Counted from the stretch's first letter, positions 5,034 through 31,307 are shown. The stretch is 64,000 bases of DNA from Candidatus Sericytochromatia bacterium (GCA_035285325.1 JAYKJB010000021.1:18549-82548), one strand, 5' to 3'. The notes: a model not told the origin generated them from the sequence alone. A program made the numbers and translations.

Positions 5034-5645
5034 ATGCAGACCTCACTCGTCCCCCTCCGAAACTGGTTCGCACAACACGACCGTCGCACGCTTCCAGAGG
5101 GTGTCCGCCCGGCCTGCGTGCTGGTCGCCCTCTGGCCGGGGGCCAACGGTTGGCAGGTGGTGTTCACCCGGCGAAGCGAGAGGTTGAACACCCACCCTGG
5201 AGAGATCAGCTTTCCGGGTGGTCGAATCGAGCCAGGGGAACTGAGACCGGAAGACACGGCCCTGAGAGAAGCCGAGGAAGAACTGGGTCTGGCGGCCGCC
5301 CACGTCGATGTGATCGGCTGCCTGGATGACGTCAGCACCCTCAAGGCCGTCCGGATCACGCCCGTGGTCGCGGTGATTCCAGCGGCGTATCCGTTTGCGA
5401 TCCAGCACGATGAGGTGGCGGAGGTTTTCTCCGTTCCCTGGCGGACCTTCCTGGATCCGGCGCAACGTCAGGAAACCTGGTGGTCCCGCGACGCGGGCAC
5501 GCCGGCCCGGCAGATCATCTTCTATCAAGCGGGGCCCCACCTGATCTGGGGCGCCACTGCTCGCATCATCGACACCTGGGTCTCTGCCCTCACAGCGCAG
5601 GGCAGGCAGGGAGCAGAGGTGCTCCAAATGCTCTCCGGAGGCTGA
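5034..5645 (+). CDS. NUDIX hydrolase, CoA pyrophosphatase (NudL-like)
   Basis: Nudix box 'GGRIEPGELRPEDTALREAEEELGL' (GX5EX7REUXEEXGU) and the CoA-pyrophosphatase-type N-terminus 'ACVLVALW…FTRRSERLNTHPGEISFPGG'. Confidence 0.8.
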   Translation: MQTSLVPLRNWFAQHDRRTLPEGVRPACVLVALWPGANGWQVVFTRRSERLNTHPGEISFPGGRIEPGELRPEDTALREAEEELGLAAAHVDVIGCLDDVSTLKAVRITPVVAVIPAAYPFAIQHDEVAEVFSVPWRTFLDPAQRQETWWSRDAGTPARQIIFYQAGPHLIWGATARIIDTWVSALTAQGRQGAEVLQMLSGG

Positions 5646-5685: not shown

Positions 5686-5751
5686 GGAACATTCAGTCCT
5701 GAAGCACCGTGCGACGCCTTGGCTGTCGCCGTGCCCCTGCGGAACCCGTCT

Positions 5752-6657
5752 ATGACCACCTCAGCCCCCAAACCAGCCTGGCTCAAGGTTCGTCCTCCTG
5801 CCGGAGAACGCTACCAGTTCATCAAGGGGCGCCTTCGCCAACTGGGTCTCGCCACGGTCTGCGAGGAGGCACGCTGTCCCAACGTGGCGGAGTGCTGGGG
5901 AGGCGGTACCGCCACCATCATGGTGATGGGAGACACCTGCACCCGCGGATGCCGTTTTTGCGCCGTCAAAACCAATCGGGTCGGACGCCCGATCGATCCC
6001 GAGGAGCCCATCAAGGTGGCAGGGATGCTGGCGCAACTCGAACTGGACTACGTGGTGATCACTTCGGTCGACCGTGACGACCTGCCCGACCAAGGGGCGG
6101 GACATTTCGCCGCGGTGATCAGGGAGGTGAAAGCGCGGCGCCCCGACATGCTGGTCGAGGTGCTCATTCCTGACTTTCGTGGCGAGCGGGGATTGATCCG
6201 CCTGGTGGCCGACGCGGGGCCTGACGTGATCGCCCACAACGTGGAAACGGTCGCGCGTCTCACGCCCCGTGTGCGCGACCCACGCGCGAACTACCAGCAG
6301 TCACTGGACGTGCTTCGGGTGGTCAAGGAGCATGCCCCCGCGATTGCGACCAAGACGTCGTTGATGATCGGCCTCGGTGAGACAGAGGCGGAAGTGGCGG
6401 AGGCCTTGCGAGACCTGCGCGCGGTCGACTGCGAAATTGTGACCTTTGGCCAGTACCTGCAGCCGACGGCCAAGCATCTCCCTGTGGTAGAGTACGTGCG
6501 CCCGGAGGTATTCGCCGCCTACGAGGACCTGGGCAAACGCCTCGGGTTTCGCTACGTGGCTTCAGGTCCGCTCGTGCGGAGTTCCTACCGAGCCGGCGAA
6601 CTGTTCATCAAGGGGATGCTCGAGGCGCGGAAATCCCCCGCCGTGGCCCATCCCTGA
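5752..6657 (+). CDS. lipA: Lipoyl synthase (radical SAM)
   Basis: 'CEEARCPNVAECW' is the auxiliary cluster and 'GDTCTRGCRFCAV' is the radical-SAM CxxxCxxC site. The C-terminus is typical of LipA. An alternative upstream start at 5719 is possible. Confidence 0.92.
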   Translation: MTTSAPKPAWLKVRPPAGERYQFIKGRLRQLGLATVCEEARCPNVAECWGGGTATIMVMGDTCTRGCRFCAVKTNRVGRPIDPEEPIKVAGMLAQLELDYVVITSVDRDDLPDQGAGHFAAVIREVKARRPDMLVEVLIPDFRGERGLIRLVADAGPDVIAHNVETVARLTPRVRDPRANYQQSLDVLRVVKEHAPAIATKTSLMIGLGETEAEVAEALRDLRAVDCEIVTFGQYLQPTAKHLPVVEYVRPEVFAAYEDLGKRLGFRYVASGPLVRSSYRAGELFIKGMLEARKSPAVAHP

Positions 6658-6679
6658 CCCCTCCGGAGGAGTATCGCGC

Positions 6680-7654
6680 ATGCCGACGATGAACATCATC
6701 CAAGCCGTCAATGACGCCTTGCGGCGAGAGATGCGTCGGGACGAACGGGTGGTCGTGCTCGGGGAGGACGTGGGGCGCTTCGGCGGTGTGTTCCGCGCCA
6801 CCACGGGCTTGCAGGAAGAGTTCGGGAGTGGGCGGGTGCTCGACACGCCGCTGGCCGAGAATGGAATCATTGGGGCCGCCATCGGCATGGCGCTCTACGG
6901 TCTGCGCCCGGTGCCTGAGATTCAGTTCGCAGATTTCGCCTACCCCGCCTTTGACCAACTGACCAACGAACTGGCCAAGTTCCGATTCCGCTCAGGTGGT
7001 CAGTATCCCTGCCCTGTGGTGGTCCGCATGCCCGTTGGGGGCGGCATCAAGGGGGGACATTACCACTCCCAACACAACGAGACCTATTTTGCCCATACCG
7101 CTGGGCTGGTGGTTGTGTGCCCGTCCAATCCGGTCGATGCCAAGGGCCTGCTGGCATCGGCCATCCGAAGCGATGACCCCGTCATTTTCATGGAGCCCAA
7201 ACGGGTGTATCGCGCGGCCCGGGCTGACGTCCCTGAAGACGACTACCTCACGCCCATTGGTAAAGCCGCCTGCCTCCGAGAAGGACGCGGCCTGACGGTG
7301 CTGACTTATGGAGCCGTCACGCACACCGTGCTGGAGGCTGCTGTCGAAGCCGAAAAGCGCGGAATGGACCCGGAAATCCTCGACCTGCGTACCCTGATTC
7401 CCCTCGATATCGACGCCGTGCTCACCTCCGTCCGCAAGACGAGGCGCTGCGTGATCGTGCATGAAGCGCCCCGGACCCTGGGATTCGGCGCGGAACTTGC
7501 GGCCCTGATCACGGAACACGCCTTCTGGCATCTTGAAGCGCCCGTGCTCCGCGTCACCGGATACGATACGCCCTTTCCCTACACACTCGAACACGAATAC
7601 CTGCCGGACACAGCGCGAATCCTCGCTGCGTTCACGCGGGTTCTCGCCGTCTGA
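6680..7654 (+). CDS. 2-oxoacid dehydrogenase E1 component beta subunit (transketolase-like)
   Basis: 'MPTMNIIQAVNDALRREMRRDERVVVLGEDVG…' is the canonical E1-beta N-terminus. 'FMEPKRVYR' and the C-terminal transketolase-C fold motifs are present. A GGAGG RBS lies 10 nt upstream. There is no E1-alpha gene upstream: the gap to lipA is 22 nt. Confidence 0.9.
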   Translation: MPTMNIIQAVNDALRREMRRDERVVVLGEDVGRFGGVFRATTGLQEEFGSGRVLDTPLAENGIIGAAIGMALYGLRPVPEIQFADFAYPAFDQLTNELAKFRFRSGGQYPCPVVVRMPVGGGIKGGHYHSQHNETYFAHTAGLVVVCPSNPVDAKGLLASAIRSDDPVIFMEPKRVYRAARADVPEDDYLTPIGKAACLREGRGLTVLTYGAVTHTVLEAAVEAEKRGMDPEILDLRTLIPLDIDAVLTSVRKTRRCVIVHEAPRTLGFGAELAALITEHAFWHLEAPVLRVTGYDTPFPYTLEHEYLPDTARILAAFTRVLAV

Positions 7655-7669
7655 TTGAAGGAGTCGCCC

Positions 7670-9001
7670 ATGAGTCACGTCACCCTCGTCGAGATCCAAC
7701 CCGGCCAATTCGAATTCCGGCTGCCTGACATTGGTGAAGGCGTCGTGGAGGGCGAGATTGTCAAGTGGCTGGTCGCGGAAGGGCAAGCCATCAAAGAAGA
7801 CGAACCGATTGTGGAGATCATGACGGACAAGGCGACGGTGGAAATTCCCAGTCCCAAGTCCGGGACGGTGGCCCGACGGTTCTGGACAGAGGGTCAGATC
7901 TGCCCGGTGGGTCAGGCGTTGGTTCTGATCGTGTCGGAGGGGTCGGTCGGAGCTGCGGCGCTCCCCGTGACGGAAGTCGACGCGCCGGCCAAACAGGAAG
8001 TCGTCGTGGCCGTGGCGTCAGGCTCGAGCAATGGGCACGGGTCGGTCAAGGCCGGCACCGCGGTGCTGGAGCGACCGTCCGGAGAGAGGGCCTTGGCGGC
8101 GCCGGCCACGCGGAAGTTGGCGCGTGACCTGGGGGTGGACCTTCAACTGGTCCCAGGTTCCGGCCCTCACGGGCGGGTGACCCGCGATGACGTCCAGGCC
8201 TTCGCAGCAGGGCCAACACTCGCTCCGGTCGCCTCGGTTCCTGCCATTCCTGTGGCCGTGGCAGCGACGTCACCTGCCATCTCCATCGCCGCCGGCCCGG
8301 GCGACGAGCGTCGCCCCTTGCGTGGATTGCGTCGCAAGATCGCCGAGAAAATGGTGCAGTCGGCCTTCACCGCCCCGCACGTCACGACCTTCGACGAGGT
8401 CGACATGACGGCCTTGGTGGGCTTGCGCCAGCGCATGAAGCCTCGCGCCGAGGCATTGGGCGTCAAACTGAGCTACATGCCGTTTTTCATCAAGGCCGTG
8501 ATTGCAGCGCTCAAACAGTTTCCGAGCTTCAACGCCAGCCTGGACGACACGACTCAGGAAATTGTGATCAAGCGCGACTATCACATCGGCTTCGCGGCGG
8601 CGACCGATAACGGGTTGCTCGTCCCGGTCATCCGCCATGCGGACCGCAAGAGCCTCTTGGAGATTGCTCGCGACATGGCAGACATCGCGGCTCGAACGCG
8701 TGCCGGAAAGGCCACGGCAGAGGAACTCTCGGGAAGCACCTTCACGATCTCGAACGTGGGTTCCATCGGCGGTCTGTTTGCCACTCCGATCATCAACCAT
8801 CCGGAGGTGGCCATCCTCGGGGTGAACAACATGCAGAAGCGGGCGGTTGTGCTGGAGGATGGCACGTTGGCCGCGCGGGACATGATGTATCTCGGACTGT
8901 CCTTCGACCACCGCGTGAATGACGGCGCGGAGGCTGTCCTGTTCCTGAATGCCGTGATCGGCTACCTGAAGGACCCCGAAACCCTGTTGATGACGCTCTG
9001 A
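7670..9001 (+). CDS. Dihydrolipoamide acyltransferase (E2) with lipoyl, E3-binding and catalytic domains
   Basis: Lipoyl-lysine motif 'IMTDKATVEIPSP', peripheral subunit-binding domain 'RKLARDLGVDLQLVPGSGPHGRVTRDDV', and catalytic 'DHRVNDGAEA'. The ATG at 7670 follows an AAGGAG RBS. Confidence 0.9.
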   Translation: MSHVTLVEIQPGQFEFRLPDIGEGVVEGEIVKWLVAEGQAIKEDEPIVEIMTDKATVEIPSPKSGTVARRFWTEGQICPVGQALVLIVSEGSVGAAALPVTEVDAPAKQEVVVAVASGSSNGHGSVKAGTAVLERPSGERALAAPATRKLARDLGVDLQLVPGSGPHGRVTRDDVQAFAAGPTLAPVASVPAIPVAVAATSPAISIAAGPGDERRPLRGLRRKIAEKMVQSAFTAPHVTTFDEVDMTALVGLRQRMKPRAEALGVKLSYMPFFIKAVIAALKQFPSFNASLDDTTQEIVIKRDYHIGFAAATDNGLLVPVIRHADRKSLLEIARDMADIAARTRAGKATAEELSGSTFTISNVGSIGGLFATPIINHPEVAILGVNNMQKRAVVLEDGTLAARDMMYLGLSFDHRVNDGAEAVLFLNAVIGYLKDPETLLMTL

Positions 9002-9077
9002 ATCGTCACCGACTCTCCCCGCCGCGCAACCTCGCCGGGCCGTGCGCGCGCAACCCCTGCTCCGAAGGAGTTTTCGC

Positions 9078-10493
9078 ATGGAAACCAGACAATATGATGC
9101 TGTCGTGATCGGCGCTGGACCGGGCGGATACGCCTGCGGAATCCGACTGGGACAGTTGGGCCTCAAGGCGCTGGTGATCGAAAAAGGGTCGGTGGGGGGA
9201 GTTTGCTTGAACGTGGGATGCATCCCATCCAAGGCCATCATCCACGCGGCAAAGACCCTGGAAAAGACCAAAAAAGCGGACGCGATGGGCATCGTGGTGG
9301 AAAGCGTCCATCTGGACTTTGCCCGTTTGCAATCCTGGAAAGACGGAATCGTCAAGAAACTGACGGGCGGCGTATCGGGACTTCTCAAAGGGAACAAGGT
9401 GGACCTCTTGCAGGGAGCGGCGCGCTTTGTGTCACCGCGGGAACTGGAAGTGGAGACGGCGAGTGGCCCCATTCGCGTGCAGGCCCCTCACATGGTCCTC
9501 GCAACCGGCTCCAGACCGATCGAGGTGCCCGGATTCCCCTTCGGCGGTCCCATCCTGAGTTCCACCGAAGCGCTTTCCCTGCCAGAGGTGCCGGGCCGCT
9601 TGCTGGTCATCGGGGGCGGTTACATCGGATTGGAACTGGGCCAGGCCTACGCCAAGATGGGGGCTGCCGTGACCATCGTCGAAGCTGGCAGCCAGTTGCT
9701 CCCGGGCCAAGATCCAGAACTGGTAGCCGTTGTGGCCAAGAAACTCGCCGCACTGGGCGTCACGGTCCTGACAGACGCGAAAGCAGCGGGCTGGGCGCCA
9801 GATGGAGCCGGGGCGCTCGTCACGGTTGAACGCCAGGGCCAGCGCGAAACCTTGAGCGCTGACAAGGTGTTGGTGACGGTGGGCCGTCGCCCCAACAGCG
9901 AGAACCTGGGCCTGGAAACGGTCGGGGTCGCCGTGGAACGAGGATTCGTCCGGGTGGATGCGCAGCTGAAAACGAATGTAGCCGGCATTTACGCGATTGG
10001 CGACGTGGCCGGGCAGCCCATGCTGGCGCACAAGGCGTCGATGGAGGCTGAAATTGTGGCGGAGGTGATCGCCGGGCATCCGGCTCAGTGGGACGCGCAA
10101 GCCATCCCTGCCGTCATCTTCACGGATCCCGAGATCGCGACCGTGGGACTCTCGCCGGCTGAGGCGGCGAATCAGAAGCTTCCCGTTCTGACCGGAAAGT
10201 TTCCGTTTGGGGCCTCCGGGCGAGCCATGACGACTGGAGAAACCGAGGGGTTTGTCAAGGTGCTGGTGCATGCCGAGACCCACCGTTTGCTGGGAGTAGG
10301 GATCGTGGGGCCACAGGCCTCCGACCTCGTCGCAGAGGCCACCTTGGCCCTTGAGATGGGGGCCTTCACCGACGACATCGGCCTGACCATTCACGCCCAC
10401 CCCACCTTGCCCGAGGCCTTCATGGAAGCGGTCAAACACGCCGTCGGCGAGGCCGTCCACACCCTCAACCAACCCGCTCTGGCCAAGCGCTGA
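9078..10493 (+). CDS. lpdA: Dihydrolipoyl dehydrogenase (E3)
   Basis: 'YDAVVIGAGPGGY' is the FAD-binding site, 'GGVCLNVGCIPSK' the redox disulfide, and 'HAHPTLPE' the C-terminal His-Glu dyad region. Confidence 0.92.
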   Translation: METRQYDAVVIGAGPGGYACGIRLGQLGLKALVIEKGSVGGVCLNVGCIPSKAIIHAAKTLEKTKKADAMGIVVESVHLDFARLQSWKDGIVKKLTGGVSGLLKGNKVDLLQGAARFVSPRELEVETASGPIRVQAPHMVLATGSRPIEVPGFPFGGPILSSTEALSLPEVPGRLLVIGGGYIGLELGQAYAKMGAAVTIVEAGSQLLPGQDPELVAVVAKKLAALGVTVLTDAKAAGWAPDGAGALVTVERQGQRETLSADKVLVTVGRRPNSENLGLETVGVAVERGFVRVDAQLKTNVAGIYAIGDVAGQPMLAHKASMEAEIVAEVIAGHPAQWDAQAIPAVIFTDPEIATVGLSPAEAANQKLPVLTGKFPFGASGRAMTTGETEGFVKVLVHAETHRLLGVGIVGPQASDLVAEATLALEMGAFTDDIGLTIHAHPTLPEAFMEAVKHAVGEAVHTLNQPALAKR

Positions 10494-10553
10494 GACGACG
10501 TTCCGCGCCTCGAACGCAGAGGCCAGATGTCGCCCCAGTCCTCCCTCCACCAG

Positions 10554-13500
10554 TCAGGTACCAGGCTCGGGGGTCCCCTCCAGCCTGGCCCGCTGCAAGG
10601 CCTCTTGCGCCCTGGCCAGCACGACATTGATGGTGCCATCCGCAGGCCGCCAGTCTGCCACGCCACACGACACCTTCACGGGCGGAAGTGGGTCGTCTGG
10701 CGACTGGCGCTCGTGCGACGCGCGAATCTGGGCGGAGGCCCGATGCGCCAGGTTCAGGGCGTCCGTCCCCGGCGTCTCGGGACAGAGAACCACAAACGCC
10801 TCTCCCCCAAGTCGGGCCACCAGATCAGTTTCACGAGCCGCATCGGCCAGGACCTGCCCGACGCGTTGCAGGATTTGATCCCCAACGGCCGGGCCAAATT
10901 GCTCCCTGGTTTCCTGAAAGTGGTCTACTTCGAAGCACAGGAGTGCAAGGGCGCGATTCTGCCTGCGCGCCAGGGCCAGTTCGCGGTCTGCGGTCGCCAG
11001 GAAGGCCCGCCGATTTCGCAGGCCAGTCAGCGCATCCAGGTTGGCGACCCTGTCGGCCTGACGCACGGCCCTCAATTGCTTTTCGAGTTCCTCGGTATGG
11101 CGCGCGATGCCTTCATACAACGTGGCGTTCTCGAAGGCCGTCGAGGCGTGAGACGCGACCAGCGCCAGCTGGTCCAGGTCCTGCAGCGAGTAGGCCACCC
11201 GAGCCGCCTGACTGTCGACATAGAGCACCCCCAAGCACCGTCCCTTTGCGATCATGGGAGCCACCATGACGGCCTTCAGGTTCAAAGCCGCCACCGACTT
11301 TCCTGGTTCAAAATCCTCCAATTTTTGACCTTCGATCAGGGCAGCCGGTTCCCGGCGGGCCGCCACCCGGAGACACACACTCATGGACAGGGGCTGATTT
11401 CGGATGTCACGCCCGCCCCGGTCCAGACCTGCTCGCACCAGCAGGTCCTCGTAACGGCCCTGGGACTTCAGCAAGGCAAAGGCCCGCTCCGCTCCGGTGA
11501 GCTCCAGCGCCACGCGCAACACCGCCTGGGCCACATCATCGACCACCAGGGAGGCGTTGATGGACGCCACCATCCGATTGAAGGTGGCGAGCTGCTCCCG
11601 CTTGGCTCCCCAAGCACGAATCATCAGGCCATAGTGAGAGGTGACGCCTGACAAGTCCGACGTGATCTGCCCAAATCGCTGCAACATGTCCTGATGGGCC
11701 TCAGCACTGAGCAGCAAGGTCCCACCGCCCGCCCAGACCCGTTCGAGAACGGTTTTGACCCCCTCCTGAGAAGCCACCTGAGCCCGACGGTCAGCCGGTA
11801 AGGTCCCCAACATCCGACGCAGGAGCCGCTGCGCATCCTGGAAATTGGCAATAGCCGCTTCTGCCAGCGGGTTGCAACGACCGGAACCGTCCAGGGCCCG
11901 CGCTGTCAACCAGGGCAATCCCATCTCGTCGGCGTGGTGGCGAGCCAGTTGAAAATGGCGCGCCGCATCCGAGCCGCCTCGCAGAAGCGAGCATTCGCCT
12001 TGGAGGCATTCCAGATAGGCGAGCGCTCGTCTCGCCCCGGCCGACTTCAAGGGTTCGCCCAGCCCAGCCAAGGCGTCCGCAGCCCCCGAGGCGTCACCGA
12101 CCGCCAGGCGGATGCTGGCAAGTTGCAGGCGTGCCTCGGTTTGGGCCGCAAGATTCGAATTCGCGGGCAAGGCTCGCAAGGCATCAGCCCGGGCCGCCTC
12201 CCACTCGCCCCGGGAAAGCCTGAGGTGAGACCGGGCCAGGAACCATTCAGCCGTATCCGGCTGGCCCGGGGCCCAATGGACCGCCAGGCGGTCGAGACAC
12301 GCTTGCAGCTCTTCCTGCAGGCCCACGCGACAGGCCGCGTGGGCGAGACGGGAAAGCGGCCATTCCAGTTCCGACGTTGGGCTCGCCCCATACGCCTCCA
12401 GCAGGCGCTCCAGCAACGCAAAGGCTTCCTCCAGGCGGCCCTGCTCCACCAGGACCCAGCCCTGCAGGGCTTGGGACTGTTGGAGCAGCAGCCCATTGTC
12501 TGCCTGGTCGAGCGCCGCGCGAGGCAATACCTCCAAGGCCTGGTCCAGCGAACCACATTCAGCGAGCACGAGCGCATGGCGCAAGCGCCTGCCGGCCAGC
12601 TGTTCCTCAGATTCCCTACGCTCACTCAGCAGAAGCCAGTCTGGCATGACCTGGCGCAATTCCCGCCAACGTCCCAGGGACCAGGCCAGTGCCACAAGCT
12701 GAGTCAACATGTCGTATTTCAAACTGGAGAGCGCATCGGGGCAGTCCAGCAGGGCCGTCACGGCCTCCTCGAACAGGGGCGTTTGCCAATCCTTCACCGT
12801 CTGGCAGCGCAACAGGGCAGTGGCGGCTGCCAACCAGGCCCCGATGTCCCCAGGCACGGCAACTTGCTCCGCGCGCAGGGAATGCAGGACCGCCTCTGCC
12901 TCCTGCAGGCGATGCTCCCCCAGCAGGATGGTGGCGAGCTCGAGGCGAGGTCGAAACCGTCCCCAGCGCAAGCTTTCGAGGGATGATTCCGCACACAGGA
13001 CCTCCAGGCTCTCACGCGCGCGTTCCCGTTCCCGCAATCCGCCGCTCCGATGCAAGCAGATGGCCAAAGCGAGTTGCAGGTCTCGCGTGTTACCAGGCCG
13101 TCCGGCGTTGAGGGCGATCGCCCGCTCGAGCTGGCCCCGCGCAGCCTGCCAGTCAGCCTTCTGGGCAGCGACCCAGGCCAACCCTTCAAGCGCATCCTCC
13201 TGGACGGCGATGGCCACCATCGCCGTGTGGAGGCCACCCAGCAACGCCAAAAAACAAGTCTCGGCCGTGCTGGTTGCTCCGAGGCTCAGGGCATACCATC
13301 CGGCGTCATGCCATTGTTTCGAAGCGTCCACTCCGGCTGCTGATTCGTGGTAGGCCAGACGCAGACTGCGCGAGGTCACCGGCCACCAGGGGGCAACCGG
13401 TGAGAGTTCCACATAGTTCGCCAGGCGCTGATGGTGAGCCTGACGTGTCGCCGGAGCCAGGTGCTCGCGGCCCCACGCAAGTTCATCGTTCGCGAGGAGG

Positions 13501-15356
13501 ATGCCGGCTGGATACAAGCGCGCGCGGCCCAGCCCCAAGAGCGCGGAGAGATGGCGGAGGGCCTGCTCCGGGGCCTCGGCAGCGAGCAGGCCAGCCCAAT
13601 CCAGCAGCCCATCGGGGTGGGTCAGGGCCACCAAGCAAATGATGTCCCTCCCATCCGCCACAGAATCAGCCTCCCCGGAGGATTCTCGCTCCGCAGAGGC
13701 ATCCAGGACCTGTGGCCAGAGGGTTTCCGGAAGACGCCAGCCTCCAGGGGTCTCCACGATCACGCGCTTCGACGTGAGCTGAGCGAGCAGGTCAGCCGCT
13801 CGCTGATAATCTCCGCCTGAGTGGCGGCGCAAGGCCGCGGCAAAACGAGAAGGCACGCGGGGAAGTTGAAAAATGGCGGCCAGCCAGTCTTCAAAGTCGT
13901 GGTCATCCGGCGCCTTCACGGGCAGGCTGCGAGCAGGCAAATCCCCCAAACCAGCCCGGGTTGATACCACCCACACCAGTCCGGGACGCTCCACCCGCAG
14001 CACGGCACGCAGCAGGCTCTGGCTGGGCTCGTCCAGGGCCTCCCAACCGTCGATGAAGCAGACCAGCGGCCCTCGCTGCGCCAAGGCATCGAACAGACCG
14101 TTCCCGGCGGCCACCAGGTGGTCCAGGGGGCGCTCATCCAGGCGAAGCGGCACCAGGGGGTCCTGGCATCGCTGGTCCAAGGCGGCCAACGCGTCACTGC
14201 AGAGTGCCGCGGCTGATTCGTCCCTGGAGCTCAGAGCCGCGCGGAGGGCCAGCAAGATTTGCCGCCAGGCCACCAGTGGAACCTGTGAAGGCGTGGCCTG
14301 GAACCACACGCTTGGAATGCCTTCCCGCAGGCAGTCTGCCCGCAGGACACGCAACAGGCGAGACTTCCCTCCCCCCGTCGGCGCACGAGCCTCCAGCAGG
14401 GCCCCACGAGACGTCGTTGCCACCTGGATGGCATCCCAACCTGCCGAGGCCGAGGCCTGAAGCGAACGAGGCATCGACGCCCGAAAATCGACCGTCAGAC
14501 TTCGCTCCTGTTTCTGCTTGCCTGAAGGGGGCGCCAGGAAAGTTTCCCAGGCCTGCTGACGGGCAGCGGGCTCGGGGGACAGCAACCGCTGCAGTAGCCG
14601 CAAGAGTTCCTGCGCCTCACCGGTGCCACGGAGTTCAGTCGCCGGAGGCGGCCCAGCCAGCAGGCACCCGGCCAGCGCATCGTCACGAACCGAAGCAAAG
14701 GGGTGACTCCCGGTCAGCAAAGTCCATCCCAGAACACCGAGCCCCCACATGTCCGTGCGATAACTGAGTGGTTCCCCTCGTAAGGCCTCAGGAGGCGTGT
14801 CAGGGCGAAGCGCTTCGACAAGCGTCCCCACCTCACTCCCCTCTGGCAGGCAGCACCACCAGTTCAGCACGACGGGCATCCCCTCAGCCGTGAATCGGAC
14901 GGCGTGGGCGGCCAGATGTCCGTGGTACCAACCTAGTGCGTGCAGGGCGTCGAGCACGCGGGCCAGCTGTTCGAGGATTTCGCGGACGCGCGAGACGGGG
15001 AGAGGCGCAAGTTCCTCGACGCTCGGACCATCCACCCAATCACTTTGCAAGACCATCGAGCCCGTGCGGGTTCGTCGGATGGGGCCGGCCAGCACGCAAG
15101 CTGGATCCGCGAGACTGTTCCAAATCTGCCGGACCAGCACCAAACGCAGGGGATCCAGGTCCCAAGCAGACAAGTACTCGCGCACCCCGATTCGCTTTCC
15201 GCCCTGCAGCGGAACGAGGACGCGCCACGGTCCCGGCGACGCATCCACCTGCGCGATCGCCTTGTAGCCTAATGGTTGGAGTGGATCCGACTCGCTCATG
15301 ACTGTCCTGACAGGGCGCCGACCAGCCCGCGCCCCCCTCATATACCCGACCGCCAC
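10554..15356 (-). CDS. Giant multidomain signalling protein: degenerate Ser/Thr kinase (pseudokinase), STAND-like P-loop NTPase, long TPR array, GAF, GGDEF with degenerate GGEAF motif and intact RxxD I-site
   Basis: N-terminus: the kinase-fold catalytic loop reads 'HGHLAAHAV' (verified at 14898-14924), where HRDLKPxN has lost its D, K and N, and DFG is replaced by 'NWW'. Walker A 'APTGGGKS' is at about 14361-14384. More than 600 aa of Ala/Leu-rich TPR-like repeats follow. The GAF domain contains 'LGVLYVD'. The GGDEF domain opens with 'LDALTGLRNRRAF' and its active site reads 'RETDLVARLGGEAF' (GGEAF verified at 10794-10808). Confidence 0.85.
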   Translation of the reverse strand: MAVGYMRGARAGRRPVRTVMSESDPLQPLGYKAIAQVDASPGPWRVLVPLQGGKRIGVREYLSAWDLDPLRLVLVRQIWNSLADPACVLAGPIRRTRTGSMVLQSDWVDGPSVEELAPLPVSRVREILEQLARVLDALHALGWYHGHLAAHAVRFTAEGMPVVLNWWCCLPEGSEVGTLVEALRPDTPPEALRGEPLSYRTDMWGLGVLGWTLLTGSHPFASVRDDALAGCLLAGPPPATELRGTGEAQELLRLLQRLLSPEPAARQQAWETFLAPPSGKQKQERSLTVDFRASMPRSLQASASAGWDAIQVATTSRGALLEARAPTGGGKSRLLRVLRADCLREGIPSVWFQATPSQVPLVAWRQILLALRAALSSRDESAAALCSDALAALDQRCQDPLVPLRLDERPLDHLVAAGNGLFDALAQRGPLVCFIDGWEALDEPSQSLLRAVLRVERPGLVWVVSTRAGLGDLPARSLPVKAPDDHDFEDWLAAIFQLPRVPSRFAAALRRHSGGDYQRAADLLAQLTSKRVIVETPGGWRLPETLWPQVLDASAERESSGEADSVADGRDIICLVALTHPDGLLDWAGLLAAEAPEQALRHLSALLGLGRARLYPAGILLANDELAWGREHLAPATRQAHHQRLANYVELSPVAPWWPVTSRSLRLAYHESAAGVDASKQWHDAGWYALSLGATSTAETCFLALLGGLHTAMVAIAVQEDALEGLAWVAAQKADWQAARGQLERAIALNAGRPGNTRDLQLALAICLHRSGGLRERERARESLEVLCAESSLESLRWGRFRPRLELATILLGEHRLQEAEAVLHSLRAEQVAVPGDIGAWLAAATALLRCQTVKDWQTPLFEEAVTALLDCPDALSSLKYDMLTQLVALAWSLGRWRELRQVMPDWLLLSERRESEEQLAGRRLRHALVLAECGSLDQALEVLPRAALDQADNGLLLQQSQALQGWVLVEQGRLEEAFALLERLLEAYGASPTSELEWPLSRLAHAACRVGLQEELQACLDRLAVHWAPGQPDTAEWFLARSHLRLSRGEWEAARADALRALPANSNLAAQTEARLQLASIRLAVGDASGAADALAGLGEPLKSAGARRALAYLECLQGECSLLRGGSDAARHFQLARHHADEMGLPWLTARALDGSGRCNPLAEAAIANFQDAQRLLRRMLGTLPADRRAQVASQEGVKTVLERVWAGGGTLLLSAEAHQDMLQRFGQITSDLSGVTSHYGLMIRAWGAKREQLATFNRMVASINASLVVDDVAQAVLRVALELTGAERAFALLKSQGRYEDLLVRAGLDRGGRDIRNQPLSMSVCLRVAARREPAALIEGQKLEDFEPGKSVAALNLKAVMVAPMIAKGRCLGVLYVDSQAARVAYSLQDLDQLALVASHASTAFENATLYEGIARHTEELEKQLRAVRQADRVANLDALTGLRNRRAFLATADRELALARRQNRALALLCFEVDHFQETREQFGPAVGDQILQRVGQVLADAARETDLVARLGGEAFVVLCPETPGTDALNLAHRASAQIRASHERQSPDDPLPPVKVSCGVADWRPADGTINVVLARAQEALQRARLEGTPEPGT

Positions 15357-15421
15357 AGTCGGCCACTACTTGGTTGGAAACCCTGGTATCATGCGGCGTG
15401 TTGTTCTTACGGTGAATCAGT

Positions 15422-16129
15422 GTGATGCCAACCTCGCCAGACGCCCCGCCGCCGAACGGCCCCGCGGCCACCGCGGTGTACTGGTTGGGCACGGTGCCCT
15501 ATCACGAGGCGTGGTTGCTGCAGCAAACCCTGCTTGCGGAGATTTACCGGGGCAGCCAGCCCGAAACCCTCTTGATGCTCGAACATCCCCCCGTGATTAC
15601 CTTGGGAAGGCGCAAGGAGGCCCGCCAGAACGTGCTGGATGCGGGAGACGTCGACGTGGTCGAAGTTGAACGTGGTGGCGACGCGACCTATCACGCCCCG
15701 GGGCAATTGGTTTGCTACCCCCTGCTGGCCCTGGCGCCTCACGAACGCGACCTGCATCGCTTCCTCAGGAACCTGGAACAAGCGGTGATCGACACCCTGC
15801 TGGAGCTGAATTTGCAAACCGGAAGGCGAGACGGTTTTAGCGGCGTCTGGTATCGCGAGCGGAAACTGGCCAGTGTGGGAGTCGCGGTGAAGCACTGGGT
15901 GACCTATCACGGCATCGCGCTGAACGTCTCGAACGATGTGAGCGCCTTCCAGCGGCTGCACCCCTGTGGACTCGCGGCAGACGTGATGGCCTCCGTGGCG
16001 GATTTTCTGGTTCAACCGCCCCCCACGTGTGAGACCTTGGCGTCACGATTTGCCCTGGCCTTCTCCCGGGCGTTCGCGCGCGAGTTGCATTGGGTATCCG
16101 GCCATCCGTGCCAGGGAGGGACGGCATGA
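15422..16129 (+). CDS. lipB: Octanoyltransferase (lipoyl(octanoyl) transferase)
   Basis: 'DATYHAPGQLVCYPLL' and 'KLASVGVAVKHWVTYHGIALNV' are LipB signatures, with the catalytic Cys in 'LHPCGL'. Confidence 0.85.
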   Translation: MMPTSPDAPPPNGPAATAVYWLGTVPYHEAWLLQQTLLAEIYRGSQPETLLMLEHPPVITLGRRKEARQNVLDAGDVDVVEVERGGDATYHAPGQLVCYPLLALAPHERDLHRFLRNLEQAVIDTLLELNLQTGRRDGFSGVWYRERKLASVGVAVKHWVTYHGIALNVSNDVSAFQRLHPCGLAADVMASVADFLVQPPPTCETLASRFALAFSRAFARELHWVSGHPCQGGTA

Positions 16130-17193
16130 AACTCCCCGGAGATCCCTCAGGATTACCCGCTGGAAGGCTGGAGGTGGCGCTCCGGGAAGCCGCTGATCGT
16201 CACGACGAGGAAGCATTCGCCACGCTGATCGACTGGATTCTGGAACGCCGCCCGACCGAAGCCGTCGAACTGCTGGCACGCTACCTGGGACACACGCGTG
16301 GCATCGGCCGACGAGCGGCGCACGCTCTGTTACGGCTGGGAGAGTCAGCGGCGCCCGTCTTGCGGGAATTGCTCGAGTCGGGTTCGCCGCGCGCCCAAAT
16401 CGATGCGGCCTGGGCGCTGGGCTCTCTGCCTGGCGAGGAATCCAGGCGTGCCTTGCTCGCGGGCGTCAGCCATCCGGCGGGCGACCAAGCCCTGACCGAT
16501 GCTTGCATTGATGCCTTGATGGAAATGGCTGACCCGATGAGCTTGCAGCCTCTGCTGGAACTGGCACAGCGAGACCAACCGCCGAGTCGGCTGGCCAGGT
16601 TGTGTCGGGCCCTCGGGCACCTCGGTGAAAAAGAGGCCATCCCCGTGTTGATGTCCCACCTGTCCCACGCGGATGAAGACGTCCGCTTGCGGGCCGCCGA
16701 GGCCCTGGCCCGTCTCTCCGAGGCGAGTGCGTGGCCGGTCCTGTTTACCCTTTTACGCGGTTCCAGCCCGGTGTCGTCCGAACTCGCCGGAACGCTTCGC
16801 GCGCTGGGTGACCTGACGCGGTCGGCCCCTTTGCTGCTCGGCGCGGCCGATGAGTCGGAGCGGGTTCGGCGCGACACGGCGGAGGCGCTGGGGGCGATCG
16901 GCGACGTCAGGGCCGTCGGCCCTCTGATGGAAGTCAGTGAGGACGCCAACCCCTGGATTCGTGGAGAGGTCGCCTATGCCCTCGGTCGGATTGCCGATCG
17001 CCGTGGCCTGCCATGCCTGCTGCGAGCGCTCAAAGACCCCTCGGATTGGGTCCGTATGTGTGCCATTCGCGGCCTGGGCCTGCTGGGAGACCCCAGCACG
17101 CTGAAACATGTGCGCCCCCTGCTGGAGGATGCCAACCCCGAGGTGAGGAGCGCAGCTCGGGATGCGTCCGAGATGCTGGAGTTGGACCTCTGA
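16126..17193 (+). CDS. HEAT-repeat (PBS-lyase-like) protein
   Basis: Repeated 'xxVRxxAAxALGxIGDxxAVxxL' units (for example 'ERVRRDTAEALGAIGDVRAVGPL' and 'NPWIRGEVAYALGRI'). The ATG at 16126 overlaps the lipB stop by 4 nt and follows GGGAGG. Confidence 0.7.
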   Translation: MKLPGDPSGLPAGRLEVALREAADRHDEEAFATLIDWILERRPTEAVELLARYLGHTRGIGRRAAHALLRLGESAAPVLRELLESGSPRAQIDAAWALGSLPGEESRRALLAGVSHPAGDQALTDACIDALMEMADPMSLQPLLELAQRDQPPSRLARLCRALGHLGEKEAIPVLMSHLSHADEDVRLRAAEALARLSEASAWPVLFTLLRGSSPVSSELAGTLRALGDLTRSAPLLLGAADESERVRRDTAEALGAIGDVRAVGPLMEVSEDANPWIRGEVAYALGRIADRRGLPCLLRALKDPSDWVRMCAIRGLGLLGDPSTLKHVRPLLEDANPEVRSAARDASEMLELDL

Positions 17194-20795: not shown

Positions 20796-21230
20796 ATGTC
20801 CAATCAACTCCCGCCGCGCACCCTGCTGGGACAGTTCCTCCAGGAACTGGCTCAACAAGGTTTGACGTCGCGCCAGGTGGAATCACACCTGATCTTCCTG
20901 CGTCTTTGGCAAGCCCACGTCAGGCCTGCGCGCCTGCTCGAGGCTTCCCCGGATTTGCTGGCGTCCTTCGTCGATCGCCTGAAGCGCACCCAGGCGCGTC
21001 GTGCAGAGATTCGCTTCGCGGAGGAAGCCATCGAGAACTTTTACGCCTTCGCGCTCGACCGCCAACCCCGATTTCCGGCCCGCGACGCCTGGGAAAAGAG
21101 GTTTCTGACTCCGCCCACCCGCCGGGTGGCCCCGATCTGGGAAGCGTTGGCTGACCGGTTTGCTCCCGCATTGCGGCGCGTCTCACCTGAATGGGTGGTG
21201 TGGCCCGCTCCACCCGAGGGCGAGCCGTGA
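20796..21230 (+). CDS. Hypothetical protein resembling a stand-alone tyrosine-recombinase N-terminal SAM-like/core-binding domain
   Basis: 'QFLQELAQQGLTSRQVESHLIFLRLWQAHV…SPDLLASFVDRLKRTQARRAEIRFAEEAIENFYAFALDRQ' fits the helical core-binding domain pattern. No catalytic R-H-R-Y domain follows. Weak. Confidence 0.4.
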   Translation: MSNQLPPRTLLGQFLQELAQQGLTSRQVESHLIFLRLWQAHVRPARLLEASPDLLASFVDRLKRTQARRAEIRFAEEAIENFYAFALDRQPRFPARDAWEKRFLTPPTRRVAPIWEALADRFAPALRRVSPEWVVWPAPPEGEP

Positions 21231-23077
21231 TCCAAACGCGTCATCCGCTGCTGGCGATTCGGCCGGTCGACCGGCGGGTTCTGGCTCGCCACCTGGTCAA
21301 ACGGGCCGAACAGTTACGTGAAGAGGAGTTGCGGCACCTGCGCCTGCGGGGGCGCCGGGCAGGCCTGTGGCTGCTGCTTTGCGCCCTTGTCATCGGGGCG
21401 CTTTGGCAGTTAGGCCCCTGGCCACTCGGGGTGGCCTTCCAAGGTTGGCTGGCCAGTTGCACGGGGCTGGCCTTGGTTCAGGCATTGGGGGCGCGGCTCC
21501 GGCCGTCCCGTCGACGCCGCCTGCCGGCTTGGCTGGGGAAATTTTTGGGCCTCGGTCAAGACCTTCAGCGGGCGCTCCGCTTTTGGCGAGGGCTACGCCC
21601 CGTCCCGGCATCCCGTTTCATACTGGCCGCGGGCCTGCTCCTGTCCGCGCGCCCGCAACTCTCCTCGACCCTGGTGAGCCGCCTGCTGGGCAGGACCGTG
21701 GGGCCAACGGCAGCGCTCGACGCCCTGGGATGGTTGGTGACAGCGGGTTATCTCGAGCGTGTCTTGGGTACCCCCAGGGTCTTGACACTGAGTGACGAAG
21801 GCCGGCGGCTGTTGCAGGCCCTGGGAGTCAGCCCCTATACAGCGCCGCCCTCACTGGACGTGGCGATTCCGTTGCACCTTCTCCCGATGATGCTGGCCAG
21901 TGGGGAAGCCGCAGCCGAAGTCGAGCCGCCCGAGGAGACCTTGCCTCCGAGCAGCCCGCTGGCAGAGGTCCCAGCCAGCGACCTGGCGCCGGCCGTACCC
22001 ACCGGACGGCCGGCCGTCGCGGCTCAGCGCTCTTGGCGCTGGCACCTGCTATGGTTGCTACCGCTGGCCTTGGCATTCGGCGCCGTGCTGGCGTTGGCGC
22101 TCCCGGCATGGCTGATGCAACTTTCCCCATCGCGACCTCAGCCTGGACTGACCCTCACCCTCCATCACCTGCCCCACAGCCGTGGCACCGTGATCCAGAT
22201 GAGCCACGATCAGCGCCTGCTTTCACGTTTTGCCGGGGACCTGTTCCAGAGTGTGCCGGAACGCTTGGATTACAAGAAACCGCTCAGTTTCAGCGGTTTC
22301 GACATGGCCGCCGACTGTAGCCTGGTCGACCATCGCATCGCCAGGGCTCAAATGTCGCCGATGGGGCGCTTCTTGTGGGTAGAATCCGACAGGCCTCCTG
22401 GTGTCAGCCCCCCGGAGCGTTGCCTGGTCGACCTGGAAACCCGCACGGTGGCGCACGACCTGGGCCGTCGGTTCAAGTCACTGGGAGCGGGAACGGTGGT
22501 GGGCTGGGTCGGGCCTCAGGCGCTGCTGGTCGAACCAGTCGTGAATACGAAGGGTGCTCCCACGTGGGAGGTGGTGGATCCCCTCACGGGTCGCAGTCTT
22601 CCAGTGGCAGTGCCATTCCATCAGTGGTTGCTGCCTCTGCACACGGAAGCGGGATTCACTTGGCTGGCCGGACTGGACAAGAATTCGCCTGACCGCTGGA
22701 CCCTCTCCACCTACTGGTGGAACGGGGTCGATGCTTACCAACCCGTCCGCCCCCCTGCGCCCCTGAACGGCACGTTTCCTGAGGGTCTGGTTCCCCGTCG
22801 AGGTGCCGTATCCCCCGACAAGGGCACCTTGCTGCTGTCTTGGGGCTCGCCCAAAGGCGTCACCGCAGGCAAGCTAGCTCTGGTGACGCTGGCAGACGCC
22901 CGCGTTCACGGGGTACATAGTTCCGCACCGGTTCTGGCGGATGCTCCCCTGTTCTGGGGCACGACCTCCGCGCAAGGTGTCCTGCGCTTCTACTACAACG
23001 TTCGCCGGGACCACGGCGTCGAACCTTGGTCGGGGGAAATTATGCCCCCGCAATCTCAACGACGCGCGGCGAGCTAG
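21191..23077 (+). CDS. Hypothetical polytopic membrane protein with cytoplasmic winged-helix-like segment and large extracytoplasmic C-terminal domain
   Basis: There are two hydrophobic TM stretches ('LWLLLCALVIGALWQLG…' and 'WHLLWLLPLALAFGAVLALALPAWL'). A MarR/PadR-like segment 'LVSRLLGRTVGPTAALDALGWLVTAGYLERV' lies between them, followed by a C-terminal domain of about 330 aa. The real start may be downstream of 21230. Confidence 0.55.
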   Translation: MGGVARSTRGRAVIQTRHPLLAIRPVDRRVLARHLVKRAEQLREEELRHLRLRGRRAGLWLLLCALVIGALWQLGPWPLGVAFQGWLASCTGLALVQALGARLRPSRRRRLPAWLGKFLGLGQDLQRALRFWRGLRPVPASRFILAAGLLLSARPQLSSTLVSRLLGRTVGPTAALDALGWLVTAGYLERVLGTPRVLTLSDEGRRLLQALGVSPYTAPPSLDVAIPLHLLPMMLASGEAAAEVEPPEETLPPSSPLAEVPASDLAPAVPTGRPAVAAQRSWRWHLLWLLPLALAFGAVLALALPAWLMQLSPSRPQPGLTLTLHHLPHSRGTVIQMSHDQRLLSRFAGDLFQSVPERLDYKKPLSFSGFDMAADCSLVDHRIARAQMSPMGRFLWVESDRPPGVSPPERCLVDLETRTVAHDLGRRFKSLGAGTVVGWVGPQALLVEPVVNTKGAPTWEVVDPLTGRSLPVAVPFHQWLLPLHTEAGFTWLAGLDKNSPDRWTLSTYWWNGVDAYQPVRPPAPLNGTFPEGLVPRRGAVSPDKGTLLLSWGSPKGVTAGKLALVTLADARVHGVHSSAPVLADAPLFWGTTSAQGVLRFYYNVRRDHGVEPWSGEIMPPQSQRRAAS

Positions 23078-25436: not shown

Positions 25437-26153
25437 GTGCCGCCGGAGCCTGATTCGCGCCGACAGCGCCTGATTCATCTGGAGTCGGTGGATTCAACCA
25501 GCGCCCACTTGAAACGTTTGGCCTTGGGCGAGATCGAGACCGGCACCGCTGTCCTCGCCGATGAGCAGACGGCGGGATATGGGCAGCGCGGACGAAGTTG
25601 GGGCTCTGCCCGCCACGTCGGCATGTATCTTTCGGTGCTGGTCGATTTGCCGGCCCCCCCCACGTTACTTCCTCTGGCTGCAGGGTTGGCGGTCTGCGAG
25701 GCCCTGCGTCACTGGACCCAAGAGGTTCGCCTGAAGTGGGTCAACGACCTGGTGGCGCGTCGGGGAAAGCTGGGAGGGGTCCTGGTCGAGGTGGTGCGGG
25801 GCCGGGCGATTGTGGGCATCGGCGTGAACCTCCACACGCCCGACGTGCCCGGTGGTATCGGACTGGAGGCCTTGCACCCGGATCCCCCCTCAGCCAAACA
25901 GCTGGCAGTAGCGGTTCTCAGCGCGCTGGATGACCGGCTGCTCACCTGGGAAATGTTCGGCACCGAACGGGTGCGAAGTGACTGGTTGGCCGCGTGCGCC
26001 CACCTCGGTCACGAAGTGGAGGTGGAGGGCCTCCGCGGCCGAAGCGAGGGTCTCGGGCCCGCCGGAGAACTGCTGCTTCGGCTCGAAAATGGGCAGCACA
26101 CCGCCGTGATTTCCGGCTCCTTGCGCATGGCGGACGGGACCTATTGTGTTTAG
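25437..26153 (+). CDS. birA: Biotin--[acetyl-CoA-carboxylase] ligase, group I (no N-terminal HTH)
   Basis: 'VDSTSAHL…LADEQTAGYGQRGRSWGSARHVGMYLSVL…KWVNDLVARRGKLGGVLVE' matches the BirA catalytic core (GRGRRGR-type loop and KWPND motif). Confidence 0.85.
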   Translation: MPPEPDSRRQRLIHLESVDSTSAHLKRLALGEIETGTAVLADEQTAGYGQRGRSWGSARHVGMYLSVLVDLPAPPTLLPLAAGLAVCEALRHWTQEVRLKWVNDLVARRGKLGGVLVEVVRGRAIVGIGVNLHTPDVPGGIGLEALHPDPPSAKQLAVAVLSALDDRLLTWEMFGTERVRSDWLAACAHLGHEVEVEGLRGRSEGLGPAGELLLRLENGQHTAVISGSLRMADGTYCV

Positions 26154-27249
26154 AATGGGCCCTTGGTCCCCCATGCTGCTGCTTGACCGCTACATCATTG
26201 CCGAACTGATCCGCCCTTTTTTGCTGGGCGTGATCGGTTTTGTCGTGATCATGCTGGCGAACACGCTCTACCTGTACGCCGAACTCATCGTCCACAGTGG
26301 GGTTTCGGTCGAAGTGGTGGCCAAGTTGCTGGGATACAACCTGCCCGCCATCGTCGTGGTGACCTTCCCGGTCGCCTACCTCTTCTCGACCTTGCTGGCG
26401 ATCGGCCGGCTGTCGAAAGACAGTGAAGTCACCGCCATGCGCTCGGTCGGCATCAGCTTTCGCCGCATCCTGATGCCCATTCTGGGCGTCTCGTTGGTGG
26501 TGAGTTACGCGGCCTTCTGGCTGAACGATGCTGTCGTGCCCTGGGCCAACCGTCAGACCGTCGACCTGGTTCGCGAGATGGTCCTGCATCAGGGAAAGCC
26601 GGTTTTGAAGGAGAACATCTTCTTCAAGGGGGCCAAGGAGAACCGCTATTTCTATGTCCGCCAGGTCGATCGGCGGACCAATTACATGTATGACGTCTTC
26701 ATTTTCGATAAGCGGACGGGTGGGCAGACCGTCACGATTGCCAACGAAGCCCAGTGGGTAGGCGATACCTGGCTGCTCAAGAACGGGGTGATCTCCCACT
26801 ATGACGAGTGGGGAGCCGTCGATCGCGAGGAGGCCTTCACGGAGTTATCCGTCGTCGTGGCCCTCAATCCTGACGCCTTCTTTGCCGCAGGGGAACGAAG
26901 CCCGCAGGAGAAGAGCAGCAGTGAACTCGCTTCAGAAATCGACACCTTGCGCGGGGGGGGGACGGACACCAAGGCCATGGAAGTCGACTATCATATGAAG
27001 TTCTCCTTGCCCCTGGCCACCTTTTTCTCTGCCATGTTGGCGGCCCCCCTGGGCGCGCAGTTTTCGCGGATGGGGGGCTACATCGGGGTGGTCTTCTCCA
27101 TCATCTTGGTGTTCATCTACTACGTGGTGATGTCTGTGGCGCGCTCTATGGGGAACAACGGCGTGTTGGACCCCATCACGGGCGCGTGGATTCAGAACTA
27201 CCTGTTTGGGGTCGTGGGAGCCTTTCTGCTGTGGCGGATCGACCGCTGA
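26146..27249 (+). CDS. LptF/LptG-family (YjgP/YjgQ) LPS-export permease
   Basis: 'MLLLDRYIIAELIRPFLLGVIGFVVIM' is the typical LptF/G N-terminus. It has six predicted TM segments with a large periplasmic loop. Confidence 0.8.
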   Translation: MFRMGPWSPMLLLDRYIIAELIRPFLLGVIGFVVIMLANTLYLYAELIVHSGVSVEVVAKLLGYNLPAIVVVTFPVAYLFSTLLAIGRLSKDSEVTAMRSVGISFRRILMPILGVSLVVSYAAFWLNDAVVPWANRQTVDLVREMVLHQGKPVLKENIFFKGAKENRYFYVRQVDRRTNYMYDVFIFDKRTGGQTVTIANEAQWVGDTWLLKNGVISHYDEWGAVDREEAFTELSVVVALNPDAFFAAGERSPQEKSSSELASEIDTLRGGGTDTKAMEVDYHMKFSLPLATFFSAMLAAPLGAQFSRMGGYIGVVFSIILVFIYYVVMSVARSMGNNGVLDPITGAWIQNYLFGVVGAFLLWRIDR

Positions 27250-30257: not shown

Positions 30258-31103
30258 GTGTCCCTTCCATCCTGCCTCCAGCGAGTTCCCGGTGACAGCC
30301 ACTTCCGCCGTTTTCCAGGGCCAGGCGGTCTACCGGCGCTCATCGCGTGTTTGGGGGCCGCCCTGCTGGCAGCCCCTGGTTGCGCTTACAACGCGACCGG
30401 TCTGGCCCCACCCAAGATGCTGATCGCGGAATTCAGCGTGGAGGGCGATCGCCTGGTGCCCTCCCCGAACTGGGCTTACTACCTGGTCATCGACACGAAC
30501 GGCAATCCCGAAGACGCTCCCCTGGTGAACGGCCCGGCTCCGCTCCAGTTTCCCTATCCAGACCCGCGAGCGTACCTTCCCTTCGTCCGCGACGAGCGTT
30601 CCATCTTGGACCGCGAACCCGTGGCCGTGCCCAATTCGGTGTGGTCCACCTACTTCGCCCTCTATGAGGAAGCAGGCCAGTTCGTCCTCTGGCAGGGACG
30701 ACCGAACGCCGACGGCACCATCAACGAGCGCGATCGCCAGTTGCAGCAGGGACGAGAGTGGACGATCAAAGACAACAAAACGCTGCAACTGACCTTGCCT
30801 TTCACCCTGATCCGGGAACCCGGCAAACCCTCAGACTTCGAGGACCCTCCCCAATGGGAAGCCAATCTGGCCGTGGCCCTGCGCGGCAATGCGCGCTGGT
30901 CTCGCGATTTCGTGATTGATCGCTGGGGCCAGGTCCAGAATTTCTCGTTTCCAATCCTGACGCGCCCGATCAACCAGACCCTCTATGACACCGTGGGGGG
31001 CGTCCGTTTCCCGCAAAACCTGCCGGCCGGGGTGGAGGCGCCGAACATGAACATCGTGTCGTTCACCTACCGGGTGGTTTCGGAAGCCGCTCCGCGTCGC
31101 TGA
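30258..31103 (+). CDS. Hypothetical lipoprotein
   Basis: Lipobox 'LLAAPGC' after a basic n-region. No known domain. Confidence 0.55.
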   Translation: MSLPSCLQRVPGDSHFRRFPGPGGLPALIACLGAALLAAPGCAYNATGLAPPKMLIAEFSVEGDRLVPSPNWAYYLVIDTNGNPEDAPLVNGPAPLQFPYPDPRAYLPFVRDERSILDREPVAVPNSVWSTYFALYEEAGQFVLWQGRPNADGTINERDRQLQQGREWTIKDNKTLQLTLPFTLIREPGKPSDFEDPPQWEANLAVALRGNARWSRDFVIDRWGQVQNFSFPILTRPINQTLYDTVGGVRFPQNLPAGVEAPNMNIVSFTYRVVSEAAPRR

Positions 31104-31136: not shown

Positions 31137-31307
31137 AGTCGCAGAACAGAATCCTCTCCCTCAATTGGAGGGGGTCCTGTAAGATCCACTTTGAAAACGA
31201 GCGGCATTCATGTCAGCACCCGTGTCATCGTGGCCTGTCACCATGAACCTCGTTGCGACCCGGCACCGCCGACGAGGTGGTCCACCAAGAACCCCAGGAG
31301 GAATCCC

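Follow-up and report, generated by a model that had tools for sequence, protein, structure and literature searches.

In a bacterium assigned to Candidatus Sericytochromatia, non-photosynthetic relatives of cyanobacteria, a gene cluster for a 2-oxoacid dehydrogenase complex is complete except for the gene of one subunit, the alpha subunit of its first enzyme, E1. The stretch of DNA analyzed, referred to here as the window, comprises 64,000 nucleotides (nt) (GCA_035285325.1 JAYKJB010000021.1:18549-82548), and in it the genes for lipoyl synthase (lipA), E1-beta, dihydrolipoyl acyltransferase (E2) and dihydrolipoyl dehydrogenase (E3) follow one another on the plus strand. The window presents an unusual gene arrangement of an ordinary 2-oxoacid dehydrogenase complex and not a novel enzyme type. 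It stands out in that the alpha gene alone has left an otherwise intact and strongly conserved cluster, unlinked alpha and beta genes as such being already known in Cyanobacteria. The cluster is probably a working lipoate-linked operon whose E1-alpha, the product of an unlinked gene, joins the operon products in trans.

Organization of the cluster

The gene content of the window was established by open reading frame (ORF) listing and by scans with Pfam and NCBIfam. The lipA ORF (5719-6657, plus strand; TIGR00510 399.8 bits against a cut-off of 310.25) opens with TTG at 5719, and its likely start is the in-frame ATG at 5752, giving a product of 301 amino acids (aa) where those of relatives have 298-300 aa. 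A 22-nt spacer with GGAGG (6658-6679, plus strand), in the slot of E1-alpha in related operons, leads to E1-beta (6680-7654, plus strand; Transket_pyr PF02779 E = 1.6e-46, Transketolase_C PF02780 E = 3.8e-35), and the junction sequence bears out an earlier note on this DNA, which had described lipA ending at 6657, then 22 nt with GGAGG and a full-length E1-beta. The E2 ORF opens at 7655, directly after E1-beta, and its likely start is the ATG at 7671, preceded by GGAG, so that the gene occupies 7671-9001 (plus strand) with a gap of 16 nt. By Pfam its product has lipoyl (PF00364), E1/E3-binding or peripheral-subunit-binding (PF02817) and catalytic acyltransferase core (PF00198) domains. E3 (ORF opening at 9042; 9079-10493, plus strand; TIGR01350 530.4 bits against 408.8) likely starts at the ATG at 9079, preceded by AGGAG, with a gap of 77 nt (9002-9078) after E2. 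Beyond a minus-strand gene for a signaling protein of 1600 aa (10554-15356) lies lipB, for octanoyl/lipoyl transferase (15422-16129, plus strand; TIGR00214 154 bits against 83.55). The positions of E2 and E3 straight after E1-beta, and of lipB on the plus strand beyond the antisense gene, had been read in the same way in that note, and the ORF and family scans agree. Both lipoate-synthesis equivalogs, LipA for sulfur insertion and LipB for octanoyl transfer, pass their cut-offs in the window. A second member of the biotin/lipoate ligase superfamily in the window, at 25437-26153 (plus strand), is a biotin-protein ligase by TIGR00121 (115.8 bits against 83.1) and no lipoate ligase.

Of the members of an alpha2beta2-type complex, E1-beta, E2 and E3 are thus present, and E1-alpha is not encoded alongside. 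The E1-alpha queries came from related loci and were recognized by PF00676 at E of about 1e-90, with TIGR03181 scores of 369-398 bits, under the cut-off of 411. Seven such verified proteins gave a best E of 0.054 by tblastn against the 64 kb. A 72-sequence E1-alpha profile that took in very divergent members, run with all filters off (hmmsearch --max) on six-frame fragments of at least 30 aa, gave a best E of 3.5 in the window, the positive controls on real genes reaching 1e-139 to 1e-159. Pfam recognized no thiamine-diphosphate enzyme of whatever type among the window's other large ORFs. The absence of E1-alpha, first claimed by eye, accordingly holds for the whole window by tblastn and by the six-frame hidden Markov model (HMM) search. 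The same searches yielded no fragment of an E1-alpha missed in another frame upstream of lipA, and the spacer at 6658-6679, where a gap or frameshift might have concealed one, is clean, with no Ns and no frameshift.

The same arrangement in related loci

MEB3196236.1, a protein encoded in a metagenome-assembled genome (MAG) of Candidatus Sericytochromatia bacterium, matches the E1-beta of the window at 100% identity. Its clade relatives are L081 (GCA_035284745.1), L085 (GCA_036675505.1), L082 to L084 and L090 (Logan), L087 and L088 (ENA/JGI) and L175 (JGI). A comparison of synteny of the kind proposed in the earlier note finds lipA-E1-beta-E2-E3 without E1-alpha in six further lineages, and neither tblastn nor HMM searches found E1-alpha within 10 kb to either side of E1-beta in them. 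The spacer between lipA and E1-beta is 10-30 nt in L081, L082, L085, L087, L090 and L175. In the six lineages E1-beta is 79-88% identical to that of the window at a guanine-plus-cytosine (GC) content of 56-71%, synonymous sites are saturated between clade members, and the clade is monophyletic in a neighbor-joining (NJ) tree of E1-beta in 100 of 100 bootstraps. The GC span of 56-71% (window, L081, L085, L087, L090 and L175) exists despite a constant gene order around the operon; together with the saturated synonymous sites, it indicates that the arrangement is old and stable.

Recurrence in independent assemblies means that the arrangement is not an artifact of the contig from which the window derives, and six lineages at such identities and GC contents rule out misassembly or recent decay. 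The notion that a misassembly, gap or frameshift conceals an E1-alpha at the lipA/E1-beta junction or upstream of lipA has next to no chance of being right: the 22-nt junction is clean, tblastn and the six-frame HMM show no fragment, and the junction recurs in NCBI, JGI, ENA and Logan assemblies. These independent assemblies refute it.

The slot between E2 and E3 is empty in the window and in L175, which is an exact copy of the window order including the direct E2/E3 junction. In L081, L085, L087 and L090 the slot holds small lipoprotein-like ORFs that occupy precisely the position of an E1-alpha paralogue, E1-alpha', in Polyangia. There are one or two of them per relative (L081 12408-12911; L082 12273-12902; L085 12326-12901 and 12918-13658; L087 12309-12902; L090 7956-9268), of 167-246 aa and in two families, with a signal peptide and then Cys, and none has a Pfam match. 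The possibility that they are decayed E1-alpha genes was rejected, as they give no HMM or tblastn signal and are lipoprotein-like.

E1-alpha in the wider family

Gene order was compared across 160 homologous loci obtained with E1-beta as query from species-representative genomes and metagenomes, with 171 loci classified in all. The scan of species-representative genomes listed 80 outgroup loci, the best at 75% identity, with none from the clade of the window. The metagenome scan, used for gene-order statistics, gave outgroups only among the listed loci, the best at 73%. E1-alpha is encoded in cis in 145 of the 171 loci, which supports the earlier statement that it normally adjoins E1-beta, and 17 are too short to judge. 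In 106 of those with a cis copy it is upstream only, in 19 one copy is upstream and another between E2 and E3/lipB, in 19 it is downstream only (14 of these have enough upstream flank to exclude an upstream copy), and in one it is upstream and frameshifted. In this last case, L054, the upstream gene is split over two frames (8107-9998), whether through a frameshift error or because it is a pseudogene.

Nine evaluable loci are without a cis E1-alpha: the window, seven clade loci and one from Trueperaceae (L076). All of the roughly 160 loci from other lineages that have sufficient flank, except L076, carry the gene in cis. As the nine derive nearly all from one monophyletic clade, the loss of E1-alpha from the cluster is a derived trait common to these Sericytochromatia. 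L076, from a MAG, resembles the window in that no E1-alpha lies within 10 kb of its E1-beta on either side, but E2 and E3 are also missing nearby and its E1-beta is only 53% identical; this solitary E1-beta (10001-10975) sits on a 1-Mb contig between unrelated genes, for a PKD-domain protein and PBP2/MinC.

The closest known counterparts in layout are compact lipA-E1alpha-E1beta-E2-E3-lipB units, found in L171, in Anaeromyxobacter (L009 and L012) and, with an extra alpha, in L060. These and the Melainabacteria-type L066 have functions, order and strand as in the window, with identities to the window proteins of 61-70% for E1-beta and 53-63% for lipA. They differ in having E1-alpha ahead of E1-beta, where the window has a 22-nt spacer, and lipB directly after E3, where the window has a 4.8-kb antisense gene in between. 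Many clusters of the Myxococcota type have two alpha genes in the order E1a-E1b-E2-E1a'-E3-lipB (L003, L006, L007, L025, L026, L028, L043 and L060; in L003 the two are at 8829-9929 and 12577-13578). The downstream copies form a separate paralogue clade, both paralogues retain the G(D/E)G...NN thiamine-diphosphate motif, and different lineages retain either the upstream or the downstream one. The upstream-only, downstream-only and double arrangements show E1-alpha to be evolutionarily labile in this family, with E1-beta as the conserved element. In two loci of Sandaracinaceae type (L036 at about 9129-9962, L063 at about 9033-9926) an upstream alpha-like gene, some 30-35% identical to typical alphas, is without the GDG...NN cofactor motif, and with the motif lost its product may be a pseudo-enzyme subunit.

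The nearest E1-betas outside the clade are those of Polyangia (L001, L002, L003, L005 and L089), at 71-76% identity. L089, the closest at 76%, has the order E1beta-E2-E1alpha'-E3, as have L002 and L005, with lipB after E3 in L002, and L003 has an extra upstream alpha. Like the window, the Polyangia type of L002, L005 and L089 has no E1-alpha upstream of E1-beta and keeps E2 ahead of E3-lipB; unlike the window clade, it has the paralogous E1-alpha between E2 and E3 and no adjacent lipA. The sister relation of the clade to Polyangia is weakly supported, at 48% NJ bootstrap.

E1-beta and the need for a partner

Of lipA, E1-beta, E2 and E3, it is E1-beta that has the lowest rate of nonsynonymous substitution (dN) across the clade, 0.10-0.16, with a ratio to the synonymous rate (dS) of about 0.07-0.10 where dS is estimable. 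It retains 98 of 99 near-invariant positions, defined by conservation of 95% or more among 81 homologues that nearly all have a cis alpha; the clade as a whole keeps 96-99 of the 99 and the outgroup median is 98. The closest structure, Thermus 1UM9_B (E = 1e-119), aligns gaplessly and collinearly over residues 2-322, and the DTPLxE glutamate is kept in that alignment. By these features of its sequence the protein is a wholly canonical beta subunit of the alpha2beta2 type of 2-oxoacid dehydrogenase, with a heterotetrameric E1, and given the purifying selection and the positions kept the complex is almost certainly functional. The substrate is less evident. With the model for pyruvate dehydrogenase (PDH) beta, NF006667, the protein falls slightly short (314.9 bits; cut-off 321), its nearest structures are those of branched-chain-type enzymes, and database names of relatives mix pyruvate and 2-oxoisovalerate dehydrogenase. 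The protein is much nearer to the Thermus/Pseudomonas type (E = 1e-119) than to mitochondrial-type PDH (E = 1e-67).

In the alpha2beta2 E1 family the cofactor diphosphate is held by alpha and the active site is at the alpha/beta interface. To our knowledge the beta subunit alone is unable to bind thiamine diphosphate. Given this role of alpha, the constraint on E1-beta is hard to explain unless the cell has an alpha subunit. In the E1 of Thermus thermophilus HB8 (1UM9), a solved example of the alpha2beta2 type, beta was solved with its alpha partner, whereas the window encodes no such partner nearby.

Source of the alpha subunit

Because the constraint on E1-beta points to an alpha in the cell, supply in trans is favored. 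The operon would have descended from the widespread lipA-E1alpha-E1beta-E2-(E1alpha')-E3-lipB type, with E1-alpha removed from the cluster in this clade at the upstream slot and the E2/E3 slot alike. A thiamine-diphosphate-binding alpha, made from an unlinked gene, would join the operon-encoded beta in trans, and E1-beta would anchor the alpha2beta2 E1 on the binding domain of E2, with E2 and E3 acting in the normal way. A signaling gene of large size would subsequently have entered antisense between E3 and lipB in one sub-clade, leaving lipB its own short upstream region.

Several points weigh against this account. No E1-alpha gene from any clade genome appears in the window, in the flanks of the relatives or among the matches listed. 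With the E1-alpha' of L089 as query, no Sericytochromatia-labeled protein is among the matches listed, the best 120 of which are all from Polyangia at 68% identity or more. With the E1-alpha of L066 as query, there is again no such label among the matches listed, which reach down to 51% and bear the names Vampirovibrio, Melainabacteria or Cyanobacteria. Calibration on loci of matched E1-beta divergence puts the expected identity of a clade E1-alpha to the queries at 50-60%, so with floors of 68% and 51% both searches are uninformative. Two GC-rich candidates, P0341 and P0281, were rejected, as they are within complete lipA-E1alpha-E1beta-E2 operons of other organisms. Promoter and terminator scans of the operon gave nothing useful, so far as co-transcription is concerned a further point on the same side. 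The presence of E1-alpha elsewhere in the genome, the directions of gene-order change and the co-transcription of lipA, E1-beta, E2 and E3 are all three inferred, the last from spacing and ribosome-binding sites. A literature search on pyruvate dehydrogenase in Sericytochromatia and on split E1 genes found nothing relevant.

That the split is unusual, as the earlier note had it, stands within this family; it is less exotic than was implied when Cyanobacteria, the phylum that includes Sericytochromatia, are considered. In CyanoBase names the letters r and l denote opposite strands, so that slr1934 and sll1721, the pdhA and pdhB of Synechocystis, do not form one operon. The Synechocystis genes pdhA (slr1934), pdhB (sll1721), pdhC (sll1841) and pdhD (slr1096) have unrelated locus tags (PMC4295605). 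Synechocystis has E1-alpha and E1-beta at separate loci (PMC4295605), as is proposed for the bacterium of the window, but there the tags of all four pdh genes are unrelated, while in the window E1-beta, E2 and E3 are together and alpha alone is gone.

Unlinked supply could also take the form of two or more separately regulated E1-alpha paralogues that set substrate or regulation for a shared E1-beta/E2/E3 core. In 19 of the 171 loci, related clusters of Myxococcota, a single E1-beta has an E1-alpha paralogue on either side, the two copies fall in distinct clades that both have the G(D/E)G...NN motif, and lineages differ in which they retain, all of which fits such exchange; but no clade alpha gene was seen in the regions examined, and two alphas are not known to share a beta, double-alpha clusters included, so this form is unlikely. 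A more general proposal, in which alpha, from one or more unlinked and separately regulated genes, is an exchangeable specificity or regulatory module for a common core, the Myxococcota double-alpha clusters are its linked precursor and the extreme is a lineage with no canonical alpha, seems rather unlikely too, if slightly less so. That extreme, taken for the present clade, would have E1-alpha truly lacking and E1-beta, E2 and E3 using a non-canonical thiamine-diphosphate partner or serving another role, for example with E2 and E3 as lipoyl carrier and redox module and E1-beta as a structural relic. It would account for the lack of E1-alpha in 64 kb here and within 10 kb to either side in six relatives, and for the lack of a Sericytochromatia-labeled E1-alpha among the homologue matches listed, though those listings could not reach a target of 50-60% identity. 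It is very unlikely, since with the diphosphate bound by alpha the beta subunit alone cannot bind the cofactor, and E1-beta is the most constrained protein of the operon, with nearly all family-invariant residues kept. The non-canonical partner raised in the earlier note finds no support: E1-beta is canonical, the cluster has no conserved gene that could be a candidate partner, and the window has no other thiamine-diphosphate enzyme.

With supply of E1-alpha in trans as the preferred explanation, the identity of the enzyme is unchanged, and the weight of the finding is modest. It matters in that 2-oxoacid dehydrogenase complexes have a central place in carbon metabolism and pipelines often call their presence or absence from operon completeness, so that genome annotation and metabolic reconstruction may mistake the pathway of Sericytochromatia for an incomplete one. 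It also suggests that the alpha subunit can be genetically uncoupled from beta, E2 and E3. The compared loci also show what textbook operons do not readily suggest: in Myxococcota and relatives alpha is the mobile and duplicable part and beta the stable anchor. If several alphas do share one beta, this would be a simple route to altered substrate range or regulation.

The antisense signaling gene

Orthologues of the signaling gene are at the E3-lipB site in L081, L082, L085, L090 and L175. The gene is absent at this site from the deeper-branching L087 and L088, where other genes come after E3, and from all outgroups, and in outgroups L002, L003, L009 and L171 E3 is followed directly by lipB. 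The sub-clade that has it (window, L081, L082, L085, L090 and L175) has 86% bootstrap for the members analyzed. As E3 abuts lipB in outgroups and the gene lies between the two only in the sub-clade, it is best read as an insertion, which is what the earlier note had surmised of an ancestral unit, and its conservation across lineages with saturated synonymous sites makes the insertion old. Arrival on a mobile element was considered and rejected, as the only flanking repeats are short matches at chance level and no tRNA is nearby; the GC content of the gene is not markedly different from that of neighboring windows. An ancient insertion with no mobile-element traces at its borders is supported.

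Pfam matches in the protein are to a degenerate kinase-like N-terminus, AAA_16, GAF and GGDEF. The GGDEF domain (nt 10575-11045; PF00990 E = 4e-33) reads GGEAF at the active-site motif GG(D/E)EF, and the orthologues in L081, L082, L085 and L090 read GGEEF there. The kinase-like match is weak and incomplete, at 24.8 bits under a cut-off of 31.7, and the window protein has neither the HRD nor the DFG of Hanks-type kinases; HRD is also absent in all orthologues checked, and DFG is found only in L090. The protein is fast-evolving: identity over its last third to half, at the C-terminus, is 41-56%, where E1-beta has 82-88%.

Neighboring genes

Four ORFs of the window for products of 281-1017 aa (21191-23077, 27186-30239, 30258-31103 and 31191-32543, plus strand) match nothing in Pfam with an E of 1e-5 or less. 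An Rfam scan of the window gave a single tRNA, at 58776, and no regulatory RNA. Upstream of lipA is a NUDIX hydrolase gene (5034-5645, plus strand; PF00293 E = 5e-16) whose closest model is CoA pyrophosphatase (NF007980), at 99 bits under the cut-off of 134. It is conserved in this place in most relatives (L081, L085, L090 and L175), with BacA there in L087. Downstream of lipB a gene for a HEAT-repeat protein (16090-17193, plus strand; PF13646 E = 3e-44) is kept within the sub-clade in L081, L082, L085 and L175, and its product weakly resembles, below threshold, NblB and CpcE, which are HEAT-repeat proteins of cyanobacteria.

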